A stretch of 63,889 nucleotides of DNA, the filler included, from Candidatus Woesearchaeota archaeon (GTDB lineage: Archaea; Nanobdellota; Nanobdellia; Woesearchaeales; GCA-2685855): the NCBI GenBank assembly GCA_002685855.1. It is 4 parts of 4 records of this genome, joined end to end, with 100 filler letters (N's around TTAATTAATTAA, not from the genome) between each part and the next. Parts side by side here need not be neighbours in the genome. Positions count along the whole stretch, not along the records: positions 18,795 to 40,388 come from NYYS01000033.1; 3 more parts are not named here. One strand, given 5' to 3'. The notes beneath the pieces are model-generated. The model had not been told where the DNA came from, ran no database searches, and was given only the letters and a program-made list of their open reading frames with translations. The translations under genes were made by a program, and so were the position numbers. Shown here piece after piece: positions 27,182 through 39,251 of the stretch; position 1 is the first letter of the stretch; each line of letters begins with the position of its first letter.

Positions 27182-28810
27182 ATGTCAGAGCTACTTAGAC
27201 GGATTCATGAAGAGTTTCCCGGGTTTGAGGCATTTTCTCTTGATATGTCTCAAGGAGGGTTTCATACAGATTGGTTTCCCCTAGGCAAAATTCCCCTTCG
27301 AAGAGACTCTCTTCGGATCACGATCATTCCTGGTGTGTTTGTAAAAGAGGGGTTTATCGAACACCTTATGCGTGGGGGTTCATTTGATGAATATCTGCGG
27401 GGATCGCTGGATTGTATGGTAAGTGGTGTAAAAGATGGACTATTGGTAATTTTAAATGAGGATGAAGAGGCAGAATACACTCCGGAATCGGTTCCTCAAC
27501 TTTTTATTGGTGATGTAGCAGAATCAGAGGGATCAAAGGTGGTTTCTGCACCTGTTGAGAAGATTATCGAGGTGTTAAAGACTCTTCAGGATACAGGATT
27601 GGAAGGCTATCTTGCGGATTGTTCTCGAACTGAATTAAGGGGAAGAAAGAGGCTGCAAAGGGATGCACAAATTGTTGCTGAATTTTTTGAAAGGGATCGA
27701 TTGTATATAGATGCAAAGGAGTTTTTCAGGAATGCTCCTCTTAGTTTAGATATACAAGCGCTGTCCCCTCACGACTTTAGTGTATATGGACAACAGCTTA
27801 TTCTTGAAGAGATGCGTAAGACGACAGGAAGCCCGGATGTTAGTATGCGACTTGCTCAATTTTTTGGAGGGTATGGAGTATTTGAATCCAGAGCAGAGTT
27901 TAAAGATAGGACTCATGAGGTAGCAGCAGATTTGAGCATGAAAAGGTTTAGGTTAGGAGAGGATTTTTATGAAAATGTACGAGATGAAATGTATCAGCTG
28001 GGCGGTCCTTCTTTTATGGAAAAACTTATTCAACAAATTCAAATTATTGGAAAGGGTCAGGATCATTTTCTTAGTGCTGATCTTGTGTTTTCTGACTGTC
28101 GTTCTAGATATAGCAAGGGTTTGGTTAAAAAAAGATTCCTTCATGAAGAGGTTGCATTGAATGTTGCTCCTGCTCTTTTACATGACACGAAATTTTTAGA
28201 AGCCACAATAAAACATCAACTTGAAGTAGTCAAAGAAGGGTTGTTTGATGATGATGTTTCAGGAACTTATACGGATTGTTTTCCTGTACAGGGATCTGAT
28301 AGAAGTTATTTTCTGAAACGGTTGAATATTCGACGTGTTCGTGGAGCAGATCATGAGCTTGTTAGCGCTTCACAGATTCGTGATAAAGGTTTGTATGTTC
28401 CTGAGGGTTTGGGACTTGTTGTTATTGGTTCTCTTCCCTATCTTGTGTTTGAACATGTTTCGAATGCGATAGATCTTTCTGGGATATATGGGGAGAATGA
28501 GGAAGAACGAAGAAGGCTTAATGCAGCAAAACAGGAACATGAGCCAGAGATCTATCGTTTGTTAGGAGGTTATGTTCAGAATATGTTTGATTGTGGTGTC
28601 AGGGATGAGGATATGGCTTTGCGTAATTTTATGGTGGAGTTTGGAAGAGGTGTTGAACGTGTGTTCATGGTAGATTTTGAAAAGACAACGATCCAGAAAG
28701 GGGGATTGAGTGAGCTTCAGCGGGCTAGAACCTTGGAACAGTTTTTTGAATTGAATGTGTTGAGTGATGAGAGGAGAGGGTATTTTCTGGAAGGGTATTC
28801 TCAGATGTAG
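27182..28810 (+). CDS. Protein with C-terminal Kdo/WaaP/Bud32-like kinase domain
   Basis: YFLKR, E helix, VPEGLG, LVFEHV, DEDMALRNFMV, MVDFE. Confidence 0.7.
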   Translation: MSELLRRIHEEFPGFEAFSLDMSQGGFHTDWFPLGKIPLRRDSLRITIIPGVFVKEGFIEHLMRGGSFDEYLRGSLDCMVSGVKDGLLVILNEDEEAEYTPESVPQLFIGDVAESEGSKVVSAPVEKIIEVLKTLQDTGLEGYLADCSRTELRGRKRLQRDAQIVAEFFERDRLYIDAKEFFRNAPLSLDIQALSPHDFSVYGQQLILEEMRKTTGSPDVSMRLAQFFGGYGVFESRAEFKDRTHEVAADLSMKRFRLGEDFYENVRDEMYQLGGPSFMEKLIQQIQIIGKGQDHFLSADLVFSDCRSRYSKGLVKKRFLHEEVALNVAPALLHDTKFLEATIKHQLEVVKEGLFDDDVSGTYTDCFPVQGSDRSYFLKRLNIRRVRGADHELVSASQIRDKGLYVPEGLGLVVIGSLPYLVFEHVSNAIDLSGIYGENEEERRRLNAAKQEHEPEIYRLLGGYVQNMFDCGVRDEDMALRNFMVEFGRGVERVFMVDFEKTTIQKGGLSELQRARTLEQFFELNVLSDERRGYFLEGYSQM

Positions 28811-30121: not shown

Positions 30122-31081
30122 ATGGCGGCGTATGAACCTATTCCAATAAAGGAGTTGAAGATCAAGAAGGGGTTTGAGGAGAGGTATCAAAAGATTCTTG
30201 GGGAGCGGTATGATGAGTTTCTGGAGTGCAGTACGAGTTATATTCGGAAGAGTATTCGTGTGAATGGGTTGAAGATTGGTGTGAAGGAGTGTGTGAAAAG
30301 GCTTTCAAAAAATTGGGTGTTGGAGCCGATTCCTTGGTGTAAGGAGGGGTTCTGGATTACGCATCGTAGGGAGAAGCGGTTTGATATTGGGAATACGCCG
30401 GAGCACCAGTTGGGGTATATTTATGTGCAGGATGCTGCGAGTATGTTGCCGCCTGTTGTTATGAAGCCGAAGAAGGGGAGTGTTGTTTTGGATTTGTGTG
30501 CGAGTCCGGGGAGCAAGACGACGCAATTGGCTGCGATGATGGAGAATCAAGGGGTGTTGATTGCGAATGATGTTCAGGGGAGCAGGATTAAGCCGCTGGG
30601 TATGAACTTGATGCGGTGTGGGACGACGAATACTATTATTACGCAGATGTCGGGTGTTGGGTTTAAGAAACATGAGGGAAGGTATGATTTTATTTTGGTT
30701 GATGCTCCATGTAGTGGGACAGGGACGGTTCGGAGGAGTTTGAAGACGCTGCAGATGTGGAGTCCAGGTCTTGTGAAAAAGATGGCAGGGATTCAGAAGC
30801 AGTTGTTATTGGCAGCTTCTACTGCGTTGAAGCCGGGCGGTGTGCTGGTGTATAGTACGTGTACGTTGGAGCCAGAGGAGGATGAGGGGATGGTTTCAAA
30901 TATTTTGGAGTTGACTGATTTGGAGACAGAGGATATTAAATTGGATATTGTGCGGAGTGATCCTGTTGTTGAGTGGGAAGGAAAGGAGTATGCTGATGGT
31001 GTTCGGAAGTGTTTGCGGATCTATCCCCAGGATAATGATACAGAAGGTTTTTTTGTTGCGCGGATGAGGAAGAAGAAATGA
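30122..31081 (+). CDS. NOL1/NOP2/Sun (RsmB/F) RNA m5C methyltransferase
   Basis: YVQDAASM, DLCASPGSKT, LVDAPCSGTG, VYSTCT, GFFVA. Confidence 0.95.
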   Translation: MAAYEPIPIKELKIKKGFEERYQKILGERYDEFLECSTSYIRKSIRVNGLKIGVKECVKRLSKNWVLEPIPWCKEGFWITHRREKRFDIGNTPEHQLGYIYVQDAASMLPPVVMKPKKGSVVLDLCASPGSKTTQLAAMMENQGVLIANDVQGSRIKPLGMNLMRCGTTNTIITQMSGVGFKKHEGRYDFILVDAPCSGTGTVRRSLKTLQMWSPGLVKKMAGIQKQLLLAASTALKPGGVLVYSTCTLEPEEDEGMVSNILELTDLETEDIKLDIVRSDPVVEWEGKEYADGVRKCLRIYPQDNDTEGFFVARMRKKK

Positions 31082-32046
31082 CGGAGTGGATGTTAGATGA
31101 TAAGAGGATGTTGTTTGTTCTGAATCCTCATGCAGGAAAGAATGGGACGTGGAGGAGGGCGGATGAACAGCGGTTGTTGCGGTTGGCAGAGGATGTTACA
31201 ATTCTGAAGACGAGTCGTGCAACCCGGACAAGGGAGGCGATTATTGGTATTGATGATCTTGATCTTATTGGTGTGTATGGGGGGGAGGGGACTGTTGGAA
31301 ATGTTACGCGTGCTATTGTTGAGAAGGGAGTGGATATGCCTCTGGGGTATTTAGGAGGTGGATCGTTTCATGGTGCGTGGAGCAAGGTGACAGGTGTTAC
31401 GAATTTTGAGCAGGGCATGAAGGCGTTGCAGGCTGGAAAGAAGAGAGGGGTTGATCTTTTTGAGATTGAGACAGATACGGGTGAAACAAGGATAGGGTTT
31501 ATGGCGGGGTTTAGGATTGATGGGATTATCTCACGAAATAGATATTTGCTCAGAAAGAGAGGAATTAATGAACGGAAACGAGCAGTGATTAAGGAGGTGT
31601 TGGGTTATGAGTCTGCACACGTGTTGTTGAAGGGAACGGATGTGAATGTTCTACGGGGTGATAGGTCCGGTATTGAAGAACGGCGTGGTGAGGGTAGGAC
31701 GATAGCAGATCTTAGTGAAAAGATGTTGGAGGTTGATTCGATGATTGTGAGTTCTTTTCCGTATATGAAGATGAGGGGGAAGGAATGTGTTGAAGGGAGT
31801 TGTCTTTATGCCACGCTTTTTTCTGCAATGGAACGTCCTCAGCGGCTTACTGCCATTAGTTTCAAGGAAGGATTGCCTTCACGAAGATTTCCGTCTTATC
31901 AGATTGTGGCAAAGAGGTTGGAGGTTACAAGTTTGGCGATGGATCGTCCGCTGCCTATTATGGTAAATGGGACTTGGTTTGATACAGAGGCAAAGAGTTA
32001 TTCTATCACCTTGTTGTCTGAAGCAGTTGATGCGGTTGTGAAGTAG
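31078..32046 (+). CDS. Diacylglycerol-kinase-like protein (divergent)
   Basis: VLNPHAG, GVYGGEGT (canonical GGDGT), PLGYLGGGS. Confidence 0.65.
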   Translation: MTEWMLDDKRMLFVLNPHAGKNGTWRRADEQRLLRLAEDVTILKTSRATRTREAIIGIDDLDLIGVYGGEGTVGNVTRAIVEKGVDMPLGYLGGGSFHGAWSKVTGVTNFEQGMKALQAGKKRGVDLFEIETDTGETRIGFMAGFRIDGIISRNRYLLRKRGINERKRAVIKEVLGYESAHVLLKGTDVNVLRGDRSGIEERRGEGRTIADLSEKMLEVDSMIVSSFPYMKMRGKECVEGSCLYATLFSAMERPQRLTAISFKEGLPSRRFPSYQIVAKRLEVTSLAMDRPLPIMVNGTWFDTEAKSYSITLLSEAVDAVVK

Positions 32047-34283: not shown

Positions 34284-34742
34284 ATGGGAAAGTTTTATTA
34301 TGCAACAGTACGTGAAAGAGTTCCGACACAGGAAAGGGCTGATGAGGAGGGATTACAGTATCTTGAAAAAAGGTTGGATCCTGAAAGTCATCTTGATGGG
34401 ACTGTGCAGGATTTATTGAATTATCTTCTGTCTTCTGAAACAGATAGTTTGAATCCTGAACCGTATGATACGACGCAGGAACATGTGGGAGCGGTAATTC
34501 GAGATATCTTAGAAAAGCCTTCCTTTGAATATAGTATCTTTGCATTGGAACGGAGTTCTGATGGACTGGTGGAGGAGGAGGATCTGAGTAAGAGGGTTAT
34601 TGATCTTGAGGGGACTGTAGGAGAGTATATGGAGCGGTTTGGAAATACAAGAAGTTTCACTCTTGGATCGGATAATAGTGTTGAGGCTCGCGGGCTGGAC
34701 ATCTATCTTTATGAAAATATGATCGGTGGAAATGTCGATTAA
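34284..34742 (+). CDS. Divergent ubiquitin-like (beta-grasp) protein with C-terminal GG-NVD
   Basis: TVQDLLNYLL helix, IDLEGTVGEY (cf. ubiquitin LEDGRTLSDY), final strand LDIYLYENMIGG; first gene of the E2/E1/JAB operon; SD GGTGGAGG. Confidence 0.65.
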   Translation: MGKFYYATVRERVPTQERADEEGLQYLEKRLDPESHLDGTVQDLLNYLLSSETDSLNPEPYDTTQEHVGAVIRDILEKPSFEYSIFALERSSDGLVEEEDLSKRVIDLEGTVGEYMERFGNTRSFTLGSDNSVEARGLDIYLYENMIGGNVD

Positions 34743-35955
34743 GATTCCTCCTACTTTTCTGGATGAGATCGCTGCTTCAAATGAACCTGTGTTTTTTTTC
34801 CAAGGGTTTGTTTATAGTTTGGATTATGGGGAAGTAGGTTCTGAAGATGCAGGAATTCGTATTGGAAAGAAAAGGTATGGTGTGTGTAAGGGGGATTCTT
34901 TTGGGTGTTTGGAGAGGCGTTATGTTGAGCAGTATCGGAAGCAGTTTCAAGAATTGCGTAAAGAAAAGGCGGGAAGATTGTTTCAGAAGCTTTTTCATTT
35001 AAAGGATGAGCTTGAAGATTTGTTGTGTGCTGAAGAGAGGGGGTTTGACCTAAAGCAGTTTGTGTTTGGTTCTGTATATAGATCTTGGCAGGCGAAAGAT
35101 AAAGGATATCTTTCAGAGGAGGTTGATTTGAATTCGGATCAGGGGTTTGAGAATGTGAATCGGTTGTTGTCTGAAACATTTGTGGAAGAAACTCCTTTGG
35201 AAAAGGTTGTTGATATTCCTTATTTGCATTTTCAACAGCGAGTGTATGGTGTTGAGTGTGAACAGGAGGGTGTGTTTTGCTTGGGGGATTTTGTTGCAGG
35301 AATTGATCATTTTTTTGATGCGTATAAACGGATGGTTACAGATATTGTGGAACGGGTGATTGAGCGCAAGAATTCTCTTTTAGAGGATCGGTTACGGGGT
35401 TTGGAGGGAATGAGGCGACGAGTTGTAGGTGAAAGGGAGGCTTTGAAATTGAATGGGTGTGAGCGTGAGGGTGTCGGGTATACAGAGATTGATGGAGAGT
35501 TGTTTGTTTATTGTGTTCAGGAAGAGTTTATTATTGAGAAGGATGGTAATTTTTATCTTTTTCCTGAGGTAAAGATCGGAGTTCCTGTTGCGGTGAGCGG
35601 CGAGGGAATTGATATTCGTGGGAGGGCGAAGTTTCTAACGTACGACTATCATCATCCTTTTAAGACCGGGATTCGTGGGCAGTTTTGTTATTCTTCGTTT
35701 GATCCTATTAATACAGGGAGAGTTCGGTCTGGACTTCGGAAGTTTGGTGAGTTTTCAGAGGATAGGATTGCAGATTCTATTACTGAACTTCTTTGGGTGG
35801 GAAAACAGATTGTGACAAAGGGGTTGTGGAAGTTGGTTCATCATCCTTTGTCTCCTGAGGTTTTTCCTGAAAATTATCTTGCAGAGGGGAGGAGTGAGGC
35901 AGAGCGGATTGGATGTGAGATCTATGTGAATAATACTCCTTTAAGCATACAATGA
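34726..35955 (+). CDS. Coiled-coil protein with C-terminal E2 (UBC)-like domain
   Basis: HHPFKTGIRGQFC resembles the E2 HPN-x7-C flap and catalytic Cys; sits between the Ubl and E1 genes. Confidence 0.55.
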   Translation: MEMSIKIPPTFLDEIAASNEPVFFFQGFVYSLDYGEVGSEDAGIRIGKKRYGVCKGDSFGCLERRYVEQYRKQFQELRKEKAGRLFQKLFHLKDELEDLLCAEERGFDLKQFVFGSVYRSWQAKDKGYLSEEVDLNSDQGFENVNRLLSETFVEETPLEKVVDIPYLHFQQRVYGVECEQEGVFCLGDFVAGIDHFFDAYKRMVTDIVERVIERKNSLLEDRLRGLEGMRRRVVGEREALKLNGCEREGVGYTEIDGELFVYCVQEEFIIEKDGNFYLFPEVKIGVPVAVSGEGIDIRGRAKFLTYDYHHPFKTGIRGQFCYSSFDPINTGRVRSGLRKFGEFSEDRIADSITELLWVGKQIVTKGLWKLVHHPLSPEVFPENYLAEGRSEAERIGCEIYVNNTPLSIQ

Positions 35956-37388
35956 AACGAATCGGATTGCGTGATCAAAGGAATGCTGAAGCATTTGGCG
36001 AGGAGAATGCTGAACGACTTTTAGATGGGCGGGTTGCTGTTGTTGGTTCGGGGAGTCTTGGACAGCTTGTGATGGGTTCTCTTGCAGGATTGGGAGTGAG
36101 AGGGATGTATAGTGTTGATGATGCTGTTGTTTTGGGAAATGAGCTGGAGCCATTGGTGTTGGAAAAGGAGAAAAATGCATCGAAGGTTGAAGTGATTGGA
36201 AGAAGCGTGAGAAAGATTAATGAAGATGCAGAGCTTAAAATTTCCTGTGGTAGGTTTCAGGAGTGGCAGATTCGTTCGTATTCTCCTCAGGTGGTTGTTG
36301 ATGCTTCTAATGATCCTATGAAAAAGCTGAGATGTTTTGATTATTGTGTTGATTATCGTGTACCGTTTATTTCTGGTTCGACTGATAGATATAAAGGGCG
36401 GATGGTTGTGTTTCGTCCTTTTTCTCGTCTTGTTGATCCGGGTCTTCGGTCCAGGATGATTCGATCAGGATTTTTTTTTAAAAATGAGTTGACTTTGGAT
36501 GCGTATGTTGGGAAGGAACAGAGTGGTGTCCCGAGCGGGGTTGTTGCGGGTCTTATAGTTGATCAGGTGAAACGTGTTCTTTTGAATGAGGAGAGAGGGG
36601 ATATTTTTGAAGAGATTAATTATAATCTCTATTCGAGGAAAAGGTTTGGAAGGAATGATAGTATTGTAAATTGCTTTTCTGATTATTCAAAGTATACTGC
36701 TGTTGTTGTAGGGGCAGGGGCTCTTGGGAATTTTGTTGGGATGCAGTTGGCTTTGTTAGGGTGGGGGAAGGTTTTGATTTATGATGATGACAGGATTGAG
36801 GCGCATAATAGGAATAGGCAGATGATGTTTCATTCGGGGAATGAAGGGGAGATGAAATCACGTGTGCTTTCTGAGCGTATGCGTGCGATTAATGCGAATG
36901 TTGCTGTTGAAGGATATGAGAAACGGTTTGTGTTGGGGGATGGTTTTTCTGGTGCTGATCTTGTTTTTTCGTGTGTGGATACTGCACGGACACGGTATGA
37001 GATTAGTAAGCAGGCGTTGCAGGATGAAGTTCCTGTTGTTGATGGCGGTACTACTGCGAGGAATGGAAGAATCAGTATTTTTGTTCCGGGTGAGACCTCT
37101 TGTTTGAACTGTCAGAATAATTTCAAAGAGATGGCAGATCGTCGTGAAAAAGCGGAGCAAAAGCGGTTGAGGGAGGGGGGATGTCTGTATGCTGAACGTA
37201 GTGTTGTTGTTCCGAATATAATTATTGGAAGTGCGATGGTGGGAGAGGGGTTAAAGATTGTGTATTCAGGAAAGCAAAAGGGGATTCTTGAAGGAAATTT
37301 TTTTTATGAGAGTACAAGGAAAGATCGTCCTTTTTATCTTGGACCGAGAATAAAACTTGGAACGGAGGAATGTATATGTTTGGATTGA
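35952..37388 (+). CDS. E1 activating enzyme with two ThiF/MoeB domains
   Basis: VAVVGSGSLG...VVVDASND; AVVVGAGALG..DDDRIEAHNRNRQ..SCVDT; SCLNC, GGC, C-terminal CIC. Confidence 0.9.
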   Translation: MKRIGLRDQRNAEAFGEENAERLLDGRVAVVGSGSLGQLVMGSLAGLGVRGMYSVDDAVVLGNELEPLVLEKEKNASKVEVIGRSVRKINEDAELKISCGRFQEWQIRSYSPQVVVDASNDPMKKLRCFDYCVDYRVPFISGSTDRYKGRMVVFRPFSRLVDPGLRSRMIRSGFFFKNELTLDAYVGKEQSGVPSGVVAGLIVDQVKRVLLNEERGDIFEEINYNLYSRKRFGRNDSIVNCFSDYSKYTAVVVGAGALGNFVGMQLALLGWGKVLIYDDDRIEAHNRNRQMMFHSGNEGEMKSRVLSERMRAINANVAVEGYEKRFVLGDGFSGADLVFSCVDTARTRYEISKQALQDEVPVVDGGTTARNGRISIFVPGETSCLNCQNNFKEMADRREKAEQKRLREGGCLYAERSVVVPNIIIGSAMVGEGLKIVYSGKQKGILEGNFFYESTRKDRPFYLGPRIKLGTEECICLD

Positions 37389-38563
37389 AACGAGGAAAGG
37401 GAAGTGTGAAGAATGGTTGTGGTGAGACAGGGGCAGGTGAGGGTAAGGAGGTTAAGATAGATGGAGAGGATGAAGGTGGAGAAACAGGAGGGGTTGAGAG
37501 GGGGGAGAATTCTGAGACTAATGATGTTGTTCAGGAAGATGTTGGTACAGGCAATAACGGGGGAGTGGTTAGGCGAGAGGGATGTGATGTTTGCGAGGAA
37601 GATATTGAGGTGTTGAAAGAGGATATCCGAAGGTATAATGCAAGTGCCCAACGTGTTGAAGAGGCAGAGAGACTTAAGCGGCGTGTTGTTGGGTGGTATA
37701 ATCGAGAAATTGAAGGTGAGGTTGATCGGTATCTTAAGGGAGATGAGACATTTTTTCCGGAATCTTTTTCTAGGATCGATCTGGGTAAGGAGGCGTTTGA
37801 GAAGGGTTTGAAAGCGGCACGACGGGTGTGTGAGATCGCAGAGCGACCTGTTGAGCTTTATCTTAATACAGAGGGAAGGAAGGGCGTTATTGAGGATGTT
37901 TGTATTGCCACACATCAGGAAGTTGATCATGGATTTTGCAGAATAATGCGAGGGAGAAATGGAAAGGAGTATGTTCGTGAAAATGGTCTTGATGATGTTG
38001 GTTGGATGCATAGTCATTGTGACTTTTCAACGCACCATTCGGATACCGATGACAGGAATACACTTCGTCGTCTTTTCAGAGAGGGAAGAAAAGATGTGCA
38101 TCAACCTTTTGGAGATGGGACTCGTTTTACAACCCATTATTTTTCAAGTGTGGTAATAAATACTATAGGAGGGGCTCCTTTTGGCGCTGTTGGTATGGGA
38201 TATTTTGTGTATGATCCTGATACGTATCGTCCTTGTTTTCGGTCGGTTATTCGAAAGAATGTTCCTGTTCGACTTGTTAATAGCGGTAGTGTTTCAGATT
38301 TTTCTGATCTTGACGGAGAGATTGTTGATCGGGTGGAGTATGAGAGTAAAAAAGTTCGTTTTGATCAGGGAATGGTTTCTCTTCCTGCTAAACAGTTAGA
38401 AGAGGTTTGTTTGGTGTTGGATAGGTGTATGCGTCAGTATGCTGATTTTTCTTCGGAATTGAAGGAGTATCAGAGACGAAATGATTCGAGAATGTTAGAG
38501 ATTAAACAGATTCAACAGAGGTTGGTTACTACAAAGGAGTTGCTTGACCAATATGATGTGTAA
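37376..38563 (+). CDS. JAB/MPN+ (JAMM) metalloprotease
   Basis: PVELY (catalytic Glu) and GWMHSHCDFSTHHSDTD = HxH-x7-S-x2-D; SD GGAGG 7 nt before ATG 37376; disordered N-terminus, coiled-coil C-terminus. Confidence 0.88.
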   Translation: MFGLKRGKGSVKNGCGETGAGEGKEVKIDGEDEGGETGGVERGENSETNDVVQEDVGTGNNGGVVRREGCDVCEEDIEVLKEDIRRYNASAQRVEEAERLKRRVVGWYNREIEGEVDRYLKGDETFFPESFSRIDLGKEAFEKGLKAARRVCEIAERPVELYLNTEGRKGVIEDVCIATHQEVDHGFCRIMRGRNGKEYVRENGLDDVGWMHSHCDFSTHHSDTDDRNTLRRLFREGRKDVHQPFGDGTRFTTHYFSSVVINTIGGAPFGAVGMGYFVYDPDTYRPCFRSVIRKNVPVRLVNSGSVSDFSDLDGEIVDRVEYESKKVRFDQGMVSLPAKQLEEVCLVLDRCMRQYADFSSELKEYQRRNDSRMLEIKQIQQRLVTTKELLDQYDV

Positions 38564-39251
38564 GAAGAGGTTTAGGAATCTGAAAGAGGTTTTTGCAGAG
38601 GGTCCTCTCTATATTTCGGATAGGAAGGGCGAGATTTGTAAGGATCTTCTTAGTGGATATATTCATGAACGTGTTGTGTATGCACAGGAATGTGGGCTGG
38701 AGAATGTTTTGCGATCATCTTTTCATTTTCGGGGGAGAGAGAGGGTTAAAAATCAGAGAATGTATCAGAGTGTTGCGTTTGATTGCTATCTTTCGTTAAT
38801 TAGGAATAGGGGTGTGGAAAGGTTGTTGAGTAAGGTGAATAGTGTTCCTGATTTGCAGCAATGTTTGTTAATTCAGTATATGGTTGATGAGGGAGTACCT
38901 TTTGTTAGACAGAATAGGATCGCGTCTGCATATAATGAGATGAAGGTAGCACATGTTCAGATGAAGAAGAATGAACGTAGGAAGAGGTATCTTAGGGTGA
39001 TTGATGATCAGTTAAAAAAGGTAGAGGGGGTGTTGTATAGGTATGATGGGATTCGTCCGGGTTGGGAGTGGAGGAGGAGAAAGATGATGGTGGATGCTCG
39101 GATGAAGTTTGAGAAGGGTGTGCGTTTTGCTAAGGTCGGGTTTGCTGCATGGCTGGTGTTGTATGCTACTGCTGTGGGATGGGATTTGATGAATCTGGGT
39201 GAGAAGGTTGTTGATAGGGATAATAGTGAACCTGTTGTTGTGGTTCGTTAA
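38544..39251 (+). CDS. Basic protein with C-terminal TM anchor, last gene of the Ubl operon (start uncertain)
   Basis: Overlaps the JAB stop codon; hydrophobic VGFAAWLVLYATAVGW near the C-terminus. Confidence 0.65.
   Translation: MTNMMCKKRFRNLKEVFAEGPLYISDRKGEICKDLLSGYIHERVVYAQECGLENVLRSSFHFRGRERVKNQRMYQSVAFDCYLSLIRNRGVERLLSKVNSVPDLQQCLLIQYMVDEGVPFVRQNRIASAYNEMKVAHVQMKKNERRKRYLRVIDDQLKKVEGVLYRYDGIRPGWEWRRRKMMVDARMKFEKGVRFAKVGFAAWLVLYATAVGWDLMNLGEKVVDRDNSEPVVVVR

Follow-up and report, generated by a model that had tools for sequence, protein, structure and literature searches.

A candidate ubiquitin-like protein conjugation operon in Nanoarchaeota and its resemblance to bacterial Bil

Operons encoding ubiquitin-like (Ubl) conjugation have been described in bacteria and archaea. 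In the published accounts, bacterial BilABCD comprises a Ubl, an E2, a JAB peptidase, and a single-chain E1 that joins an inactive and an active adenylation domain (IAD and AAD), has no E3, and is arranged in the order Ubl-E2-JAB-E1 (PMC10557695; types I and II, 10.1101/2023.09.04.556158). The inactive domain of BilD contributes Arg9, a zinc site consists of CxxC and a C-terminal CxC, and a helical CYS domain of ~80 residues holds the catalytic Cys (PMC10557695); both BilA and the pro-ubiquitin of C. subterraneum are made with a tail after the Gly (PMC10557695, PMC5654768). The Caldiarchaeum/Asgard operon encodes pro-ubiquitin, E1, a canonical HPN E2, a JAMM protease, and a small RING E3 (PMC5654768), and Bub (6E/DUF6527) operons encode a Ubl, E2, E1, and JAB without E3, with Tyr/Ser oxyesters, fusions, and BubE (PMC11601596). 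In the literature searched, E2-dependent conjugation in archaea is described for Caldiarchaeum/Asgard but not for DPANN. Here, we analyze a five-gene operon (ORF1 to ORF5) in 63,889 nucleotides of DNA, filler included, from a Candidatus Woesearchaeota archaeon (GCA_002685855.1); this whole stretch is referred to below as the window. Our analysis indicates that the operon probably encodes a self-contained Ubl conjugation system that works like bacterial Bil.

A recurring operon and its described counterparts

Lying on contig C33 (window 18795-40388) and overlapping at every junction (by 17, 4, 19, and 20 nucleotides with the longest starts used; Table 1), the five open reading frames (ORFs) occur once each in the window's genome, which is 94% complete. 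An earlier note, made from the sequence alone, had described five same-strand overlapping genes on one contig and read them as an E2-dependent, RING-less Ubl system in a DPANN-type host. Its coordinates and quoted motifs were all confirmed, the named relatives are labeled Nanoarchaeota, Woesearchaeota, Pacearchaeota, or DPANN, and its reading is supported by recurrence of the gene set and by the match of the ORF2 model to the E2 fold. Judging from the alignments, the motifs are beyond chance because they are conserved across each family, and the catalytic residues of the operon enzymes are kept at 12-35% overall identity.

We fetched 109 related loci of <=16 kb each, 69 via an E1 match and 40 via an ORF2 match, some of them cut by contig ends. 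Iterated profiles placed the tag, ORF2, E1, and JAB genes together in 75 of these, from 67 genomes, 41 families, and two orders (11 genomes lie outside the window's order), so the gene-neighborhood survey that the note had proposed found the arrangement conserved elsewhere. The commonest exact gene orders were tag-E2-JAB-E1 (30/109) and the window's tag-E2-E1-JAB (19/109), and extra JAB or tag copies were frequent. Whole-genome searches were confined to the phylum. With the E1 as query, 61 of 401 genomes from the window's order had a match at E<=1e-20, a tally that takes in the window's own genome and G120, which enters no other result; with a profile of the ORF2 C-terminal domain, matches came from 53 of 401 phylum genomes (39 of the same order, 14 of the same class outside it). 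About one-seventh of the genomes in this phylum, whose cells are reduced and mostly host-associated, thus carry the system with its eukaryote-style two-domain E1. The ORF2 domain had no match in plasmids or phages, a single E1 query returned no viral locus, and when the window's E1 was used for pattern scans, named genomes yielded no relative and metagenomes nothing beyond an identical copy. One 2.2-kb relative contig carries a Bdellovibrio label, probably through a binning error.

Likeness to Bil extends to the gene set without E3 (the Ubl called here by its Gly-Gly and context, the E2 by fold search), to the Bil order as the commonest order, and to the IAD arginine, the four-Cys zinc site, and a Ubl with a post-Gly tail. 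The note had not recognized the architecture from described systems; it is not unprecedented, because the gene set, commonest order, and E1 layout were already known from BilABCD (PMC10557695). The archaeal proteins differ in several respects. The E1 lacks the ~80-residue CYS domain and has 10-43 residues (median 17) between the C387 and C411 columns, the conserved core resuming directly after; the E2 has HP-x-C, whereas Bil has Cys then His (CEHH in type II), and bears a ~240-residue stalk and head; the tag is 110-240 residues long, with insertions; and there are a fifth conserved gene, an archaeal host, and no defense-island context. Bil A/B/C models gave no PADLOC match for ORF1, ORF2, ORF4, or ORF5, none of 111 ORF2 relatives matched a Bil model, and PADLOC matched the E1 to BilD at only E=4e-6, below Cap2-type models.

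The Caldiarchaeum/Asgard operon is likewise an archaeal set of tag, E1, E2, and JAMM protease, but here there is no RING gene (no RING family was found among 51 operon-cluster representatives), the E1 has two ThiF domains, and Pfam recognizes neither tag nor E2. Unlike Bub, the present system has both catalytic cysteines conserved and separate genes, and no BubE was seen. A GG-ended small protein, a ThiF-family E1, and a JAMM protease are shared with haloarchaeal SAMP/UbaA/JAMM1 and with the Nanoarchaeota ThiS-type proteins, but SAMP/UbaA has no E2 and a single-domain E1; the ThiS-type proteins, of ~65 residues, form a family separate from ORF1 and occur in 114/201 phylum genomes. Eukaryotic E1s (UBA1/6/7, NAE1-UBA3, SAE1-UBA2) share the IAD-AAD pseudo-dimer, whereas SCCH, FCCH, and UFD are missing here. 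By these features, the system resembles Bil in its working but departs from it in the CYS domain, E2 motif, and profile matches, and it is neither the Caldiarchaeum/Asgard system nor Bub.

Properties of the five proteins

ORF3 contains two ThiF domains (Pfam ThiF E=3e-57, in two stretches) with the motifs C384xxC387, G410-C411, and C474xC476. In the N-terminal ThiF domain, the P-loop is decayed and the N-x-x-R-Q motif is absent, so the E1 appears to combine an inactive with an active adenylation domain. Across the family, G254, G256, N286, R289, K302, and C411 are present in 88/88 sequences and Arg10 in 77/88; the zinc cysteines are kept in 73 (C384), 67 (C387), 64 (C474), and 70 (C476) of the 88. 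Cys411 is the putative catalytic Cys. The best PDB matches of the E1 profile are eukaryotic UBA1/UBA3/UBA2/UBA6 (E 6e-40 to 2e-36), just ahead of ThiF/MoeB, but a special kinship to eukaryotic E1s is not indicated, since bacterial MoeB-type proteins in a large database score as high or higher. The window's genome has a separate single-domain ThiF on another contig and no match to ThiS or the TtuA family. This single-domain ThiF gene, at L173:381-2181 (G000:C46), lies in a run with an 82-residue ORF and a gene that, from its SGGFDS motif, we take to be ThiI-like.

The canonical E2 motif is HPN-x7-C. In the ORF2 family, at ~15-20% identity, His308 and Pro309 are each present in 103/111 sequences and Cys319 in 104/111, within a conserved Y-x-H-P-F...I-C-x-G motif that lacks a conserved His after the Cys. 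No match to UQ_con was found in the window's genome. An AlphaFold2 model of ORF2 built with the 111 sequences (pLDDT 87, pTM 0.61) was used for structure searches. Among the 50 matches listed in a wide VIA search, 19 were UBC-fold (best 1yrv, Z 5.9, 134/153 residues), and BubB also matched (Z 5.2, 109/128 residues); in a second search, E2s made up 49 of the 50 listed, with a best Z of 6.3, and E2s recur among weak Foldseek matches. UBC-fold matches aligned 122-138 residues over ~150-residue E2s (Z 5.5-6.3, rmsd 4.1-5.4). BilB was not among the matches listed, and hhalign of the ORF2 domain with BubB gave 2.8%. A UBC fold, which the note had asked Foldseek and AlphaFold to check, is thus supported by an E2 match over nearly the whole domain at Z ~6, with which the independent HP-x-C motif agrees.

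Reading domain boundaries from the aligned ranges (~103 to ~383) and the secondary structure, we infer a split E2 domain whose first helix (~104-123) is separated from the remainder (~243-383) by an insertion of ~120 residues. In the model, the N-terminal half would be a duplicated head of beta-hairpin units (~20-56 and ~164-190), each followed by a long helix, on a coiled-coil stalk, so that the E2 itself would carry a candidate element for choosing substrates. Short stand-alone E2-like domains of 180-260 residues without the stalk also occur (L034:2492-3085, L034:5613-6224, L158, L164, L165, and L166), some of them away from operons.

ORF1 ends in Gly148-Gly149 and the three-residue tail NVD. 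Of 244 aligned homologues, 167 have Gly at the first of these columns and 197 at the second, after an alternating hydrophobic strand (the profile has 385 relatives at 50% clustering). A GG lies within the last 32 residues in 54/84 operon-adjacent tags and 2/13 detached copies, and most operon tags have a tail beyond the Gly, which would explain the JAB in the operon. Globally aligned with 29 ThiS-type proteins from its phylum, ORF1 matches them in the same order, element for element, apart from one inserted helix and one inserted hairpin, but the alignment is non-significant; in one form, the hhalign score between the two exceeded that of 30/30 column shuffles. Mean-field covariation in the family (244 tags, Neff 203) is weak, with pairs 7-48, 41-85, 44-112, and 36-110 fitting a beta-grasp and no clear strand ladders. 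No ubiquitin-family match was found among 65 tags, hhalign of ORF1 with BubA gave 0.1%, the ESM Atlas held no match >=0.9 and no TM >0.5 for ORF1 or ORF2, and the profiles of both returned only chance matches from PDB and Pfam (e.g., proteasome alpha-4, E=0.009). Given the Gly-ended strand and the colinear ThiS-type alignment, we estimate that ORF1 is a likely, putative beta-grasp with helical and hairpin insertions. The tag family also has variants (P0011 and P0016), one being a tandem of two domains that lacks GG, the other bearing a C-terminal hydrophobic segment after its tag domain.

ORF4 carries a complete JAMM motif (E162, H214-S-H216-x7-S224-x2-D227) between an acidic N-terminal extension and a C-terminal helical tail. 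Its Pfam Prok-JAB match (E=0.005) is below the cut-off; among its relatives, E162, H214, H216, S224, and D227 are each kept in 94-98 of 99 rows, and the exact pattern in 73/98.

ORF5 consists of a helical domain followed by a basic helical region, with a hydrophobic segment near residue 198. A single-sequence search that found no relative had left it outside the system; this was ruled out when a profile built from 15 downstream proteins at other loci matched ORF5 (E=3.8e-8; 31.0 bits, with <=4.1 in 500 shuffles) and by recurrence of the fifth family in 32/75 complete loci. The family had no Pfam match in the representatives scanned. ORF5 belongs to the system and is a candidate substrate or adaptor. 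The note's five-gene unit therefore stands, with ORF5 as a true member, whereas the C-terminal membrane anchor that it had assigned is borderline: the hydrophobic stretch scores 1.46 (Kyte-Doolittle, 19 residues), and only 5/35 fifth-family members exceed 1.6. Anchoring of ORF5 is weakly indicated, and the fifth family is not generally one of membrane proteins. At L040:4998-9875 and in the C-terminal parts of several fifth-family proteins (L130, L134, and L141), we saw a small, repeated SH3-like domain, labeled by pattern alone, that bears a YYYGG...PLG motif.

Proposed chemistry, alternatives, and role

In the mechanism that we propose, the JAB would trim the ORF1 tail after Gly149, and the active E1 domain with ATP would adenylate the tag Gly, with Arg10 supplied by the inactive domain. 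Cys411 would then accept the tag as a thioester (the residues are conserved, and the chemistry is taken from ThiF/E1 enzymes), and the tag would move to ORF2 Cys319, in a fold that the model supports. With neither a RING nor a HECT E3, ORF2 itself may attach the tag to a target lysine, selected by its stalk and duplicated head, by the fifth protein, or by both; the JAB could later take the tag off again. Conjugation is the best-fitting chemistry because of the conserved E1 and E2 residues, the E2 fold, and the operon context, and because sulfur links are limited to another E1 clade.

Several observations weigh against this mechanism. ORF1 has no sequence match to any Ubl family, nor ORF2 to any E2 family, in Pfam, PDB, or PADLOC. 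For the tag, 30/84 operon copies lack a literal GG, many having a single Gly; the single-sequence AlphaFold model (pLDDT 35) is unusable; and hhalign against a ThiS/SAMP-type profile gives a probability of 0.6-3.6%. For ORF2, the position of the HPN Asn is Phe in 69, Ala in 11, and Cys in 8 of 111 sequences; no PDB structure or viral model matched in Foldseek at E<=0.001; the E2 matches have middling Z scores, under 8; and the top match of the wide VIA search, like most of its other non-UBC matches, was a coiled coil (ORF2 residues ~70-240). One E1 clade (5 loci), moreover, carries a cysteine desulfurase.

That clade is the starting point for a different chemistry, in which ORF1, after maturation by the JAB, carries sulfur as a thiocarboxylate in a CysO/Mec-like manner and the ORF2 Cys carries sulfur or is structural. 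We consider this improbable. The SufS-like desulfurase is upstream in the 5 loci, two of which have a radical SAM gene downstream, and bacterial MoeB-type proteins score no lower than eukaryotic E1s against the E1 profile; but a single E1 clade with support 1.0, to which the window's E1 does not belong, contains all 5 loci. That clade comes from a rapidly built FastTree phylogeny whose deep nodes are weak and of which only well-supported shallow clades were used. No sulfur-accepting enzyme is a conserved neighbor, although ThiG and MoaE were not sought genome-wide, and the two desulfurases of the window's genome are on other contigs, not beside the operon. The note's statement that ThiS/MoaD sulfur-transfer partners are absent next to the operon was upheld: no ThiS/ThiG/MoaE-like gene adjoins it, and its neighbors are housekeeping genes. 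We also know of no place in known sulfur relays for an E2-fold protein with a conserved HP-x-C. A still less probable alternative is SAMP-like conjugation by the E1 alone, ORF2 being a non-catalytic UEV/RWD-like adaptor; it would fit the absent HPN Asn and the middling structural match, which includes the non-catalytic UBC-fold protein FTS, but Cys319 persists in 104/111 sequences despite their divergence, and E1 Cys411 is invariant. Action at the membrane or host-cell interface through ORF5, also suggested in the note, seems improbable as well. DPANN archaea are mostly host-associated, and ORF5 has its C-terminal hydrophobic stretch; yet that segment is borderline, 30/35 fifth-family proteins have no clear transmembrane segment, and the enzymes need cytoplasmic ATP. 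The loci of the desulfurase clade (L086, L093, L140, L141, and L159) also have a large unknown gene upstream, longer tags with PG-like ends, and altered JAB motif spacing, and they are possibly a derived sulfur-linked subtype.

What the conjugated tag is for is less clear than the chemistry: we tentatively put unfolding, degradation, or regulation foremost, then antiviral conjugation, and regard other purposes as doubtful. The evidence comes from 362 same-strand neighbors, with recurring clusters of AAA ATPases (12 loci), transglutaminase-like proteins (11), Ser/Thr kinases (9), and cysteine desulfurases (5), and from a defense scan of the 136 nearest of 250 flanking ORFs at 74 loci. It is quite possible that the tag marks proteins of the cell for unfolding by AAA+ ATPases, for degradation by the proteasome, or for regulation. 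In 4 loci an ARC/Mpa-like proteasome ATPase precedes the tag gene by 0-14 nucleotides, and in 5 a ClpX-like ATPase abuts the operon, the two groups belonging to separate E1 clades; kinases join 9 loci; the ARC-like ATPase occurs in 6/401 genomes, all 6 of which have the E1 or E2 family of the system; and the window's genome has a proteasome beta subunit. Against this, an unfoldase neighbor is present in only 9/109 loci, the ARC query was itself taken from one such operon, the ARC-like ATPase lies elsewhere in 2/6 genomes (once in a Pup-ligase operon), and no full-length match to ARC-like or ClpX-like proteins was found in the window's genome. An archaeal Bil-type antiviral system, with the tag conjugated to a virion assembly protein, is possible at a somewhat lower level. 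It would account for the shared gene set, commonest order, and E1 layout (PMC10557695), the patchy presence in order and phylum, the quick divergence and variable flanks, and the occurrence of up to three complete loci per genome; but PADLOC at E<=1e-25 matched only 9/136 flanking ORFs, all to generic Ser/Thr kinase models, so the antiviral role raised in the note found no defense neighbors. This blank is weak because PADLOC is built mostly from bacterial systems. Housekeeping neighbors, an operon GC content (0.426) equal to that of the genome (0.423), and the frequent clustering of same-family E1s in the tree, i.e., much vertical descent, also count against an antiviral role.

A Pup-proteasome-like operon was found at L207:6484-12140 (G021:C15, same order), with an ARC-like ATPase, then at least two Pup-ligase (Dop/PafA) genes (E=4e-135 and 2e-100) and a small ORF ending GGQ; two loci of the E1/E2 system occur in the same genome, G021. 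In another clade (L043, L045, L046, L049, L052, L053, L055, and L059), the fifth gene is followed on one strand by Ser/Thr kinase, cytidylyltransferase-like, and pyruvate-kinase-like genes.

A broader hypothesis, speculative and rather unlikely as a whole, is that Nanoarchaeota hold their own old and widespread Ubl system, separate from Bil and Asgard, in which an IAD-AAD E1 charges a split E2, the stalk and head with the fifth helical protein form a new substrate selector replacing an E3, and the tag serves AAA+ unfoldases or kinase signaling and not (only) antiviral defense. The operon brings a third lineage to bear on how the E1-E2 cascade and the IAD-AAD E1 originated, is built largely from protein families outside current libraries yet common to many relatives, and offers a five-protein set suited to in vitro reconstitution. 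We found no description of it in the literature searched, which mostly did not cover subscription journals and did not extend to supplements; in the accessible text of a study of 208 complete Nanobdellota genomes (10.64898/2026.05.13.725050), a term search gave 0 occurrences of ubiquitin, ThiF, and JAB.

Operon layout and flanking genes

Table 1. Window coordinates of the operon features
Feature	Position	Strand	Length	Assignment
ORF1	34284..34742	+	152 aa	Putative ubiquitin-like tag precursor
ORF2	34732..35955 (409 aa from GTG 34726)	+	407 aa	E2/UBC-like protein
ORF2 putative E2 active site, His308-Pro309-Phe310-x8-Cys319 (407-aa numbering)	35653..35688	+		
ORF3	35952..37388	+	478 aa	Putative single-chain E1, inactive (N-terminal) and active (C-terminal) adenylation domains
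ORF4	37370..38563	+	397 aa	Predicted JAB/JAMM zinc peptidase
ORF5	38544..39251	+	235 aa	Fifth-family member

ORF1, ORF2, and ORF5 had no match in Pfam, NCBIfam, or PADLOC. The housekeeping neighbors are glutamine synthetase, TYW3, an RsmB/F methyltransferase, a diacylglycerol-kinase-like protein, and an MFS transporter. Two RNA runs from one sample contain short, scattered fragments that fall both within the operon and beyond it and may derive from DNA. In one RNA-library contig, also from one sample, the ORF1 start is immediately preceded (window 34283) by 255 unrelated letters for which the genome gave no match; this junction may be a chimera or the context of another strain. The diacylglycerol-kinase-like gene (window 31078-32046; Pfam E=4e-12) overlaps the RsmB/F methyltransferase gene. 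Farther upstream, a 542-residue ORF (window 27182-28810) has no Pfam match, and its C-terminal part has a D-x4-N...D-F-E pattern that we take to be kinase-like.

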